Assembly: GCA_030141605.1 (NCBI GenBank)
Contig: JAQGDQ010000060.1
Span: 496,001-560,000 of the forward strand
Direction of reading: 5' to 3'
DNA from: Tubiluchus corallicola
Lineage: Eukaryota; Animalia; Priapulida
DNA length: 64,000 nucleotides
Part shown: piece by piece, positions 58,801 through 61,231 of the stretch
Layout: each line of letters opens with the position of its first letter
How positions within the stretch are numbered: the stretch's first letter is position 1
Position numbers and translations under genes: made by a program
The notes under the pieces: generated by a model
The model's input: the letters and a program-made list of their open reading frames with translations, nothing else
Databases searched by the model: none
Told to the model about the DNA's origin: nothing

Positions 58801-61231
58801 CAAAATATTGTTTGAATAAGATCAGCTGAATGTTAATACAGCATAAGGTAAGAATAAAAGGAATATACAAATCCTAGTAAGAGAGAAGGCAGTTTGGGGT
58901 TCTTCTTCAAAACGTTGTTACGTAGGTCTGGAAACCCTTGACCCAAACCAAATTGAATCCCAGTCAAATTTCGTGCCTTAATCTGAGACACATTCACTTT
59001 GGCCCAAGCACTGTCAGCTGTTCCATAAAAGCAATTTTTAGCCAATAACAAGTAACTCAAGAAGAAATAAAGTGATATTACATTAGTCACGGTAATATTG
59101 AAGAAAGGAACAAGATTGATTTATAAACAAAGTAAGATAACAAACGATCTCCAAACTAAACAGCTAAATGGCATGAATAAACTTAATGAGCATTATTACG
59201 TTTATAATCGCACCAAAAATCTATAAATGCACAGAAAATAGTTGCAAATTTATGCTTCATTACTACAAATGCAAGCAATTCACCTAACAAGAACTTGATG
59301 CAAACTTTTCGAACAAATAACTACTAATGTGACTAATTATTCCCTCACTTCACTCAAAAAACATCAAACTAAACCTAAAATACTTAAAAACAATCAACAG
59401 GTGCAATTATAAAAAGTCACACTATAAATTAAATAGTTTCACATCTCAAACACTTAGCCTAATTCTCCAGGTAACTAACCCAACTTTTCATTAGCTAAGA
59501 AACTGCCAAGCTTATCTAGAATTCGGCTAAATAACAGAATTATCTCAAATCATATTTTGCACAGCTATCATGTTGATATAGAATTTTCACTTACAAGTAG
59601 TCAAGTACAGCGAGGAGGCGTGACTACCGTGTAATAATTGTAATTAGGTATTTCTTGCATTTTTAACCTATGACTGACTACAGTTTATAAAACATACAAA
59701 AACGTGTGCTTACCTTCGTGAGCTGAAAAAAAGAAAAAAGACAACATCAGCATCAAAATACATTCAGTAAGTAACAACAAAAAATATGGCTGTGCAAATT
59801 AAAGGAAAGCAATAGTCAAATTTAGAACATAGCTCAAAATAATGTATGGACTAAAGTACAGACAAGAAAAATATTGTCTTTTTAACAAGCACAGCTTTAC
59901 AAAAATGCACTACATGAAAAATAAGCAATGTATTGGATCCATCAGAAGGACTCGACCCAGTCATGACATAGACCCAGGATGACAACTAAGCCACACGAGT
60001 GCATACAGCTTGAAATCATGAATTCAAAAGCACAAAACTTATGCTGTTGCGAATTTTACATGGAAATGTCAAGTTTCACCTTTCACTCTTATATAAATGT
60101 ATGAAATGTTAATAAACGTTATGGGAGTTCACGAAAATCGAGAAACTTTTGGAATTTAGCCTATCAGTGACCTAACTGTTAGACGTGCTCGGGGTAGCTA
60201 ATTAAATTTCTAACTTACCGGTATTATTTAACTATCAGATACATGTGTGTGGAAAACGTCCGGAATTCGACTATCATGCTTTTTCAGTTTATTCACACAT
60301 TCTGAATCTATATCTATTGAGGTTCACTTGATGCAAGCTCATCGCTCTACGTTATTTTTGATGGAAATAATCAACAAAAAACTGAGGCCTGTGCTGTGCA
60401 GACTAAAAAACAATCTTAATAGAACTGCCATTGAAATTTGCCATTGTTTTTGTCTGATTCCTACACAAACACCTTAGCAATAGCAAGAAAGAGTGGCCCG
60501 TTAATGGCTTTTCAAGATAATAATCTGGAGCTGATAACGAAAGTAACTGCAATAAAATGGCCGCTCACAGGAAGGAGTTTAAAAATATGAGTCTTAATTT
60601 TTAGCCAGTAAATGAGAGAATATTTGATGTTAACCGGACATTTGATGCAATCAACTTAAAGGCTAACCTTGACATTGCCGATTTACGGACGGTTAAATTA
60701 ATTTGCATGTACACATTTCGTAATAGCAGTGTTCTCTCGCTACTTCGCACTTCGTTTATCGCGGACATTTTTATGAACATTTAAGTAAAGTTTTTTAAAA
60801 GGTACATGTACAGTATGGGAAAAGGTTATTAATGTATAAGAGTGTGGGGAGGGTTAATAAGGGCTTAAAATAATGTATAACTACTAAGATAAGTATAGTG
60901 TCCCTACTTCGCTGATATTCACTTATCGTGGGTGGGCCTGGAACGGAACACCCACTTAAGTGAGGAAACACTGTATTACAGGTAAAAATTGTATATTTTA
61001 TATCACATATTTCAGGCATAGCCTGAAAAATCATTGCACTTTCCTTTAAATAATATTAAGACATCCAGCTGCAAAAATTATTAAAGAAGCAAGGATAACC
61101 AACATAAAAAAATGATAAATTTTACGTTCCTCTCTAATAACGCAGATACGTACTAGTATCTAGACTTGCGTCCTCTAGAACGGGAACGGGAACGGCTGTA
61201 ACGTGACCGACGTGGCGTTCTCGATCTGCTT
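37810..61231 (-). CDS. TRA2: Transformer-2 homolog (RS-RRM-RS splicing factor), 5'-partial
   Basis: Exons on -: 61154-61231, microexon 59714-59722, 44748-44862, 42314-42442, 41582-41641, 39911-40026, 39510-39649, 37810-37820. All are GT-AG with consistent phases. Diagnostic motifs: [40 protein letters not shown]1 [50 protein letters not shown]. The start codon was not found in the window. Confidence 0.93.
39510..39649 (-). CDS. TRA2: TRA2 exon, Gly/Tyr linker and RS2
   Basis: cag|[46 protein letters not shown]|gtaagt. Confidence 0.92.
39700..39840. repeat. Degenerate ~19-22-bp tandem repeat in a short TRA2 intron
   Basis: Recurring GAACAC(A/G)GAGACG(G/A)C(A/G)TCC. Confidence 0.75.
39911..40026 (-). 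CDS. TRA2: TRA2 exon, end of RRM
   Basis: cag|[38 protein letters not shown](R)|gtataa. Confidence 0.95.
41051..41471. mobile_element. Tigger-like MITE, family C
   Basis: TA|CAGTGTTCCCTCGCTACTTCGCGG...AAGTGAAGGAACACTG|TA. A shorter copy lies at 60727-60973. Confidence 0.8.
41582..41641 (-). CDS. TRA2: TRA2 exon, RNP1
   Basis: tag|[20 protein letters not shown]|gtaagt. Confidence 0.95.
41910..42113. repeat. CT-rich low-complexity tract (GA-rich on the TRA2 sense strand)
   Basis: Mosaic of (CT)n and (CCCT)n. Confidence 0.9.
42314..42442 (-). CDS. TRA2: TRA2 exon, RRM start (RNP2)
   Basis: tag|[43 protein letters not shown]|gtgagt. Confidence 0.95.
42512..42975 (-). mobile_element. LINE 3' end with C-terminal zinc-finger remnant and (TCTA)n tail
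   Basis: The - strand reads [17 protein letters not shown]...[15 protein letters not shown]. The tail region 42512-42640 is tandemly duplicated. Confidence 0.7.
43802..44465. repeat. Minisatellite, 34-bp unit, about 19.5 copies, inside a probable TIR element (about 43575-44480)
   Basis: Unit GCATG(G/A)CGAGTGCTAGATGTGAGGGCAAACTGGG. The flanks AGTGTCTGTCTAA and TTGGGCAGACACT form an imperfect inverted pair. Confidence 0.93.
44748..44862 (-). CDS. TRA2: TRA2 exon, end of RS1
   Basis: cag|[38 protein letters not shown]|gtgagt. Confidence 0.95.
44985..45130 (-). repeat. Tandem duplicate of the TRA2 exon acceptor and first ~60 exon nt, with an in-frame stop
   Basis: Matches about 44805-44950. 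The acceptor GCGTACAG is intact (AG at 45047-45048) and is followed by C CGT TCC CTT AAT TGA. Confidence 0.85.
45603..46190. mobile_element. Kolobok-like family K copy
   Basis: AGCACAAGAAAA...TTTTCTTGTCCT with TTAA flanks; collinear with 14137-14801. Confidence 0.75.
48627..50028 (-). CDS. BEN-domain protein B (coiled coil + C-terminal BEN); single large exon, possibly an alternative last exon of TRA2
   Basis: Open frame 48627-50078. Coil [32 protein letters not shown] motifs [22 protein letters not shown]...[10 protein letters not shown]...[10 protein letters not shown]. Acceptor TTACTTTGTTACAG has its AG at 50029-50030, phase 2; an in-frame ATG follows a few codons later. Confidence 0.88.
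51246..51728. mobile_element. hAT-type MITE (inverted copy of 2167-2653)
   Basis: CAGGGGTGTGCAAATT start and a decayed right TIR, with flanks GTTTAGAC/TTTTAGAC. The interior is nearly identical to the reverse complement of 2167-2653. Confidence 0.9.
54555..56031 (-). CDS. BEN-domain protein A (coiled coil + basic NLS + C-terminal BEN); single large exon, possibly an alternative last exon of TRA2
   Basis: ORF 54555-55955 stays open up to the acceptor TTCATCTCTTGCAG (AG at 56032-56033, phase 2). Coil [32 protein letters not shown]-like [21 protein letters not shown] motifs [22 protein letters not shown]...[10 protein letters not shown]...[10 protein letters not shown]. Confidence 0.88.
57500..57631. 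repeat. Short tandem duplication (~76-bp period)
   Basis: TGTTGTCGTTCCATTTCAGTCAACTGTTTGTAC...TTGCGGTCTACACGAA occurs twice. Confidence 0.85.
59714..59722 (-). CDS. TRA2: TRA2 9-nt microexon
   Basis: Long pyrimidine tract TCTTTTTTCTTTTTTTCAG|CTCACGAAG|GTAAGC. It is frame-preserving and adds Ser-Arg to RS1. Confidence 0.75.
60727..60973. mobile_element. Tigger-like MITE, family C, short copy
   Basis: CAGTGTTCTCTCGCTACTTCGC...AAGTGAGGAAACACTG|TA. Confidence 0.75.
61154..61231 (-). CDS. TRA2: TRA2 RS1 exon
   Basis: tgtgtag|[28 protein letters not shown]|gtacgt; phase 2 at both ends. Confidence 0.9.

Follow-up and report, generated by a model that had tools for sequence, protein, structure and literature searches.

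A 9-nt microexon as a candidate shared donor for TRA2 and TRA2-BEN terminal exons at a transformer-2 locus of Tubiluchus corallicola

The mod(mdg4) gene of Drosophila encodes a shared N-terminal BTB domain, which is followed by many alternative C-terminal exons. A BEN domain is found in one of its several isoforms, isoform C (PMC4281564). Among TRA2 genes, alternative splicing around the first arginine/serine-rich (RS) domain, RS1, serves autoregulation, while RS1 itself is essential for activation by Tra2beta and RS domains are able to co-activate without the RNA recognition motif (RRM) (PMC3240583). Two further classes of exons are pertinent to the present study: the essential exons, such as exon 2 of C. 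elegans fubl-1/fubl-3 and the tnt-3 microexon, whose skipped isoforms meet a premature stop (PMC13247117), and the SRRM3/4 (eMIC) neural microexons. Here, we analyzed a stretch of 64,000 nucleotides (nt) from the priapulid Tubiluchus corallicola (assembly GCA_030141605.1, contig JAQGDQ010000060.1, positions 496,001 to 560,000; hereafter the window), whose minus strand carries a transformer-2 (TRA2) gene with a 9-nt microexon, CTCACGAAG, and two long exons, BEN1 and BEN2, with predicted BEN domains. Our preferred reading, to which we assign a probability of about 0.5, is that the microexon is mostly constitutive, that its donor is shared by three competing acceptors leading either to TRA2 or to RS1-BEN proteins, and that the stop codon created by skipping it is a by-product of this arrangement.

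The likeness to mod(mdg4) lies in alternative terminal exons placed on a shared N-terminus, with a BEN domain in one isoform. Unlike mod(mdg4), the shared N-terminus here would come from the RS1 domain in a splicing factor whose default product would bind RNA through its RRM, and two BEN exons are found on the same strand, with the microexon supplying the shared donor. Inclusion of the TRA2A/TRA2B poison exon adds a stop, whereas here it is skipping that makes one; likewise, the Tra2beta delta-RS1 isoform loses RS1, whereas here RS1 would be retained and a long conserved open reading frame (ORF) would replace the RRM. As with the essential exons, the skipped isoform meets a premature stop, but those exons create non-triplet frameshifts, while the present microexon is a triplet one that preserves the frame, and its skipping yields a split-codon stop only with some downstream acceptors. 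It shares with the eMIC microexons a size of 3-27 nt, a frame-preserving length, and a long AG-exclusion zone, and it differs from them in having a U-tract that abuts the AG, a UGC located upstream of that tract, and no UCUC-type tract. The BEN domains of BANP, BEND6, NACC1, and Insensitive match those of the window in fold and profile at ~20% identity. Neither a TRA2-BEN fusion nor a split-stop microexon was described in the literature searched, which was mostly non-subscription and taken without supplementary tables.

The window has a GC content of ~36% and reads as animal-type DNA. All features of the TRA2 gene are given in window positions and lie on the minus strand. Joined in silico, eight exons form an open RS1-RRM-RS2 frame that continues to a normal stop. 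These are the RS1 exon (61154..61231; 78 nt, phase 2 at both ends, ending ...ATACTA with the split Tyr codon TA|), the microexon (59714..59722; 9 nt, donor AAG|GTAAGC), the canonical exon containing the remainder of RS1 (44748..44862, beginning CCG), three RRM exons (42314..42442, 129 nt; 41582..41641, 60 nt; 39911..40026, 116 nt; the latter two placed by alignment and the joined model), and, from the joined model, a Gly/Tyr-rich plus RS2 exon (39510..39649, 140 nt) and a last coding exon with 11 nt up to the stop (37810..37820). The order RS1, single RRM, RS2 in the joined model, together with an RRM_1 match of 26 bits in the first RRM exon (Pfam cut-off 20.7), identifies the gene as TRA2. 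The RRM exons are at 68-82% to the TRA2-like proteins P0003 and P0005 over the two best exons and 42% over the 60-nt exon, and a protein search with these exons matched four proteins. No RS-rich upstream TRA2 exon or first exon(s) could be found in 61232-64000. In human TRA2B, the exon sizes at the corresponding positions are 163, 189, and 116 nt, followed by the last 11 coding nt. Comparison with these values reveals agreement for 129 + 60 = 189, 116, and 11 nt, while the single RS1 exon is split here into 78 + 9 + 115 nt. The 129 + 60 split of the RRM exon suggests an intron gain in this lineage. If the human sizes are right, then the microexon may be a remnant of an ancestral coding exon that came to be flanked by two newly gained introns; this origin would favor its constitutive use.

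An earlier note on this DNA had proposed that the microexon acts as a stop-codon gate for the BEN isoforms alone, and the sequence arithmetic behind that proposal held throughout our in-silico joins. CTCACGAAG is unique in the window (minus strand, 59722-59714), where it lies between ...ttttttcag and gtaagc. The RS1 exon does end in TA| at the donor claimed (GTACGT, GT from 61153), and the BEN1 (56031) and BEN2 (50028) acceptors both open with ATCC. Skipping the microexon, i.e. joining RS1 directly to BEN1 or BEN2, results in a TA|A stop after 25 codons, while its inclusion yields an open frame of 520 codons with BEN1 or 495 codons with BEN2. Any RS1-BEN protein would therefore require the microexon, just as the note had argued. 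At the canonical junction, the codon reads TA|C upon skipping and AG|C upon inclusion, which leaves TRA2 open both ways; with its flanks, the microexon translates as Y-S-R-S before the canonical exon and as Y-S-R-R before the BEN exons. Two alternative RS1 donors near 61153 (GTCTAG and GTATCT) were discarded by eye as weak or stop-containing. The TA| exon end is the sole uncommon ingredient of the arithmetic: TA-starting codons account for 5/67 in RS1, 7/491 in the BEN1 ORF, and 9/466 in the BEN2 ORF, and acceptors opening with A or G, either of which makes a stop after TA, number six of the ten examined here. The |A start of the BEN exons counts as one event, because BEN1 and BEN2 are paralogues.

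The microexon is very likely a genuine exon. Both strands of the 64 kb were scanned for microexon-like candidates, defined as AG-(3-30 nt)-GTRAG with at least 14/17 pyrimidines, which identified three on the minus strand and one on the plus strand, with CTCACGAAG being the best of the four. In 200 simulations of the 16.3-kb intron under a 4th-order Markov model, candidates with at least 16/17 pyrimidines (a threshold chosen post hoc) were expected 0.01 times and ≥1 was present in 1% of runs, while at the threshold of at least 14/17, 0.295 hits were expected and 24% of runs contained ≥1. The exon also falls within the 3-27 nt of microexons, lies between a canonical AG and GT with strong flanks, and carries the RS repeat in register. 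We next consider the type of exon that its flanks would indicate. The 3' splice region (59723..59789) places a U-tract directly at the CAG and includes a 67-nt AG-exclusion zone. Among the 11 acceptors scored (those of the eight TRA2 exons plus three alternative acceptors), this zone is the longest and the site is the strongest, with 16/17 pyrimidines (14 T) compared to 11-14/17 for the other ten. The donor agrees with what we take to be the donor consensus at 7/9 positions. Only one UGC occurs within 60 nt of the microexon, at -30, upstream of the U-tract. In both fly and mammal, the 3' sites of eMIC exons are extremely weak, their AG-exclusion zones are long, and a UGC lies near the AG (10.1101/2021.02.24.432780). 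The microexon has neither a weak 3' site nor a UGC between the polypyrimidine tract and the AG, and it is the constitutive microexons that have the strongest sites (PMC7821500). A UGC walk has also been made between the tract and the AG, with the result that UGC is not strictly needed for the response to SRRM4 (10.1101/2024.09.17.613571). The regulated neural (eMIC) inclusion by which the earlier note would have created an AND gate is not supported, in view of the strongest 3' site of the gene, a UGC found only at -30, and an RNA-like contig that fits inclusion (see below). We conclude that the microexon is probably near-constitutive and mostly included. Weighing against this conclusion are the long AG-exclusion zone, which is the one of three eMIC features that fits and which, together with the frame-preserving length, does suit a regulated microexon.

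The two sequencing runs aligned to the window differ in kind. Run X1 provides cover in all 30 bins, introns too, and thus behaves as DNA with no usable splice joints. Run X2 is only guessed to be RNA; it carries the same species label as X1 and has 7 differences in 116 nt. A single 172-nt contig from X2 aligned to the canonical exon (44749-44864), departing from the genome beside the canonical donor (44749). At its other end, it is aligned to 44864, i.e. past the acceptor by two extra matching letters (AG), and then has three unaligned letters. This end pattern agrees with the microexon end CGAAG, but neither with that of RS1 (TACTA) nor with intron retention, which provides a weak hint that inclusion is dominant in the normal TRA2 mRNA of the X2 sample. 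At 90% and 80% likeness, X2 left RS1, the microexon, and both BEN exons uncovered and displayed no joints, although a hole of this kind proves nothing. For 48600-56100, no RNA record was listed, from which nothing follows about expression. No read showing microexon skipping was found in the X1/X2 alignments. On the opposing side, the hint amounts to one contig and five letters, three of them undisplayed, many exons end in AG, and no read or contig in the X1/X2 alignments joins RS1 or the microexon to a BEN exon.

BEN1 (54555..56031) contains 491 codons plus a stop and encodes a coiled-coil-like segment, a low-complexity linker, and a BEN domain (~54863-54642; Pfam BEN match and predicted fold), with a candidate poly(A) signal (AATAAA) at 53263. 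Its paralogue BEN2 (48627..50028) contains 466 codons plus a stop, a BEN domain (~48929-48702; Pfam BEN match), and a candidate poly(A) signal (ATTAAA) from 47694. Both therefore have the features of alternative terminal exons, namely a shared donor phase, an open frame, and an own 3' end, the poly(A) signals being candidates only. For the C-terminal 154 residues of BEN1, AlphaFold2 gave a predicted local distance difference test score (pLDDT) of 91.1 from 42 sequences. The best Foldseek match of this model was the BANP BEN domain 7yug (E 2.4e-4, TM 0.57/0.73), and the 15 best among the matches listed were all BEN domains, with BANP, Insv, NACC1, Bsg25A, and BEND6 in the top ranks. A profile search likewise placed BEND6 (E 3.5e-5) and BANP (2.9e-4) on top. 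The Pfam scores of 21.8 and 20.7 bits do stay below the PF10523 gathering score of 23.2, which counts against the assignment; among the homologues, six of seven matched Pfam BEN and only P0012 was above the gathering score. Between BEN1 and BEN2, 93/135 residues of the BEN region are identical, while only 11/41 4-fold sites are, which indicates synonymous saturation. Taken together, BEN1 and BEN2 are genuinely coding, with a predicted BEN helical fold, and their tails are predicted to bind DNA. The protein searches, two of which scored ~7990 candidates, found no close BEN relatives other than P0001 (70% to BEN1) and P0010 (43% to BEN2). The nearest named BEN-domain relatives (P0019, P0020, P0022, P0027, and P0029) are uncharacterized sea urchin, sea cucumber, and Ptychodera proteins, and related BEN proteins are present as stand-alone genes in echinoderms and a hemichordate. 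An atlas search returned BEN clusters at 0.88-0.89, which is a lead only. BEN1 also contains a strong internal donor at 55639 (CAG|GTAAGG, 8/9), which was judged to be a chance match, as the P0001 protein differs there (G-K vs S-E); its use (minus strand) would yield a 392-nt frameshifting cassette. One high-copy repeat family is also present between BEN1 and BEN2.

We were interested to determine whether the BEN ORFs depend upon an upstream exon. The P0010 sequence V-C-C-R-S aligns with L-C-Y|R-S of BEN2, which corresponds to a translated YAG|R acceptor in phase 2, and by tblastn R29 of P0010 falls on the BEN2 junction codon. P0010 and BEN2 also have a common motif, GNSELQSALSALL..HTLQ (score 72, equaled by 0/2000 shuffles), that sits between the junction and Met109, the first in-exon Met of P0010 (Mets at 1, 109, 112, and 151). 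The early Mets of the window ORFs are not conserved: Met6 of BEN2 (ATG at +17) is Lys in P0010 and Met26 of BEN1 is missing from P0001, while the first ATG of the BEN1 exon is out of frame. Retention of the junction phase and the motif, in contrast to the early Mets, means that the BEN ORFs probably need a coding exon of phase 2 upstream, and we consider it very likely that they are terminal exons in phase 2 that require one. The earlier note had offered internal ATGs as a fallback for the BEN exons; such in-exon ATGs do exist, but their poor conservation in the orthologues weakens this part of the proposal. The microexon donor is the nearest established phase-2 donor upstream of the BEN exons, and no ATG-led phase-2 donor was found between the BEN1 candidate poly(A) signal and BEN2. 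We therefore favor RS1-BEN fusion proteins over independent starts and consider their existence likely. A number of observations speak against such fusions. The called start Met of P0001, three codons into the exon, could be a true ATG, and Met1 of P0010 could likewise be real. The microexon-BEN1 intron contains ATG-led phase-2 donors at 58532, 58403, and 56682, any of which might belong to an independent first exon. No RS N-terminus was present on a BEN protein among the homologues found, including P0001 and P0010, both of which are known as proteins only, so that their splicing and any linkage to TRA2 can only be deduced. RS-rich sequences among the proteins collected were limited to three TRA2 proteins and the weak case of P0039. 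Metagenome scans produced 598 pattern matches, of which 0 were confirmed by alignment, and 0 matches to the acceptor element.

The two BEN acceptors have more in common than their first letter. The BEN1 acceptor element, TCCTTATATGGATCTTT...CAG|ATCC (56028..56060, minus strand), contains a branch-point-like CTTAT and a predicted hairpin, and the same hairpin is predicted for the BEN2 acceptor element, TCCTTATACGGATCTTT...CAG|ATCC (50025..50057, minus strand). Common to both are the 17-nt intronic element TCCTTATAYGGATCTTT (16/17 identical) and |ATCC, and this element was kept although the synonymous sites of the paralogues are saturated (4-fold 11/41). Because |ATCC is part of a conserved acceptor element, the |A start of both BEN exons has a second explanation. 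At each acceptor, the predicted minimum free energy and centroid structures both have GGAUCU in a stem with AG|AUCC that covers the acceptor AG, and a 6-bp match of the GGAUCU/AGAUCC kind occurs by chance at 28/1922 YAG sites. Thus, the hairpin is a candidate regulator of acceptor choice. Several results argue against such a role, as the hairpin z-scores (-0.24 and -1.46) are not significant, the pair probabilities range from 0.25 to 1.0 depending on window size, no covariation supporting the hairpin was found, and local gene conversion is a possible source of the shared element. A U12-type reading of TCCTTAT was discarded by eye, as neither the RS1 nor the microexon end has an RTATCCT donor (the consensus that we assume), and Rfam returned 0 matches. 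A separate tandem acceptor copy (44950-45130, minus strand) is located 184 nt upstream of the real canonical acceptor. Within it, a degenerate duplicate of that acceptor and of the first part of its exon (44950..45046) meets a stop after four codons with or without the microexon and includes AATAAA at 44984 and 44961; it possibly acts as a decoy or as a poison acceptor, or else the duplication is neutral.

According to the preferred reading, the microexon would be included nearly always, and splicing to the acceptor of BEN1 or BEN2, with subsequent polyadenylation, would swap the RRM and RS2 for a coiled-coil-like segment and a BEN domain. The regulated step would be the choice of acceptor, probably tuned by the branch-point/hairpin element masking AG|AUCC. 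Use of a BEN acceptor would also draw transcripts away from full-length TRA2, and the fusion would bring the RS1 splicing-activation domain to the BEN target DNA. Rare transcripts that skip the microexon and use a BEN acceptor would produce a short RS1 peptide or be degraded. Nonsense-mediated decay applies where a stop precedes a later exon junction by more than ~55 nt or where the 3' untranslated region (UTR) is long (PMC13247117). If the BEN exons are terminal, then the stop made by skipping spans the last junction, so that decay could occur only via the long-3' UTR route. This stop is probably a by-product or a passive fail-safe rather than a regulated switch. The opposite position, a regulated AND gate in which tissue-regulated inclusion must coincide with BEN acceptor choice and all else takes the TAA poison route, strikes us as rather unlikely. 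The junction arithmetic is exactly what it would require, the triplet length suits it, as does an AG-exclusion zone longer than those of the other ten acceptors, TA exon ends are uncommon by the codon counts given above, and UGC is not a strict requirement of SRRM4 (10.1101/2024.09.17.613571). In addition, the junction Arg of P0010 (AG|A or AG|G) means that TA|R would still be a stop if the RS1 of that species ends in TA. However, a strong U-tract at the AG is unlike eMIC exons and like constitutive microexons (PMC7821500), the X2 contig pattern agrees with inclusion, and the A at the BEN starts is otherwise accounted for, given that A or G opens 6/10 acceptors, the BEN pair stems from one duplication, and the conserved element supplies the letter. 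A related arrangement with two keys, in which a masked acceptor must be opened and the microexon included, would make TRA2 a dual RNA/DNA-binding locus whose triplet microexon is neutral for one isoform and essential for the others; we regard this as similarly doubtful.

The BEN ORFs might instead be nested genes independent of TRA2, each with its own promoter and first exon within the intron or with spliced-leader trans-splicing onto the acceptors described here, and with translation starting at an in-exon ATG, in which case the microexon would be unrelated to them. This is unlikely in our estimation, yet it is the alternative that we take most seriously, since the ORFs are large single coding exons with a Met near the start (the BEN2 ATG at +17 and the P0001 start three codons in), their relatives in echinoderms and a hemichordate stand alone, and BEN1 is preceded by three candidate phase-2 donors that are ATG-led. 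Against it, the early Mets are not conserved, the conserved motif precedes the first in-exon Met of P0010, and the first BEN1 ATG is out of frame. In addition, BEN1, BEN2, and P0010 all retain the same junction phase, which equals the end phase of the microexon. It is improbable that the BEN exons are mainly an autoregulatory sink, i.e. poison or premature last exons that lower full-length TRA2 with the protein being incidental. AGAA, which we take to be a Tra2 motif, does occur 10-17 times per kb in the BEN exons compared to 2-4 per kb in introns, but the exons of RS1 and the RRM also contain it 13-16 times per kb. TRA2 genes are known to autoregulate via poison exons (PMC3240583), whereas open ORFs of 491 and 466 codons, the 93/135 identity of the BEN regions, and orthologues at 70% and 43% are evidence of strong selection at the protein level. 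Finally, it is very improbable that the 9-mer is a pseudo-exon, present by chance or left unused, with RS1 spliced directly to the canonical exon while BEN1 and BEN2 are attached to another upstream exon. Although TA|C leaves TRA2 open without the microexon and 24% of the 200 simulated introns hold a candidate at the lower threshold, only 1% do so at the observed strength, the 9-mer encodes an in-register S-R and exactly opens both BEN frames, and the X2 clip pattern rules out TACTA directly before the canonical exon.

The remainder of the window contains other genes and repeats. A 359-residue stop-to-stop ORF on the plus strand (7029-8108) begins like a signal peptide and matches the Pentaxin domain at 71 bits, and exons of an F-box/LRR-type gene extend over ~12386-26478 of the same strand, with LRR matches at 26158-26475; this gene is reminiscent of FBXL4. 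Tandem arrays are found at 43798-44466 (34 bp x 19.7), 62250-62520 (90 bp x 3, 99% matches), and 39710-39840 (19 bp x 6.8). High-copy interspersed repeats are located at ~45600-45960, 51300-51650, 52550-53090, and 60760-60950, where the X1 depth reaches hundreds to thousands.

The TRA2-BEN tail swap is probably a new element and a stronger lead than the stop-codon gate. If the fusions exist, then a conserved splicing activator has gained isoforms that carry RS1 on a DNA-binding domain, which would offer a direct route for recruiting the splicing machinery to chosen loci. An SR-like gene would likewise have exchanged domains through the use of alternative last exons, for which we found no precedent in the literature searched. 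If the gate were also true, a frame-preserving microexon would serve as an isoform-specific essential exon via a split stop, even though screens based upon reading frame would call it neutral.

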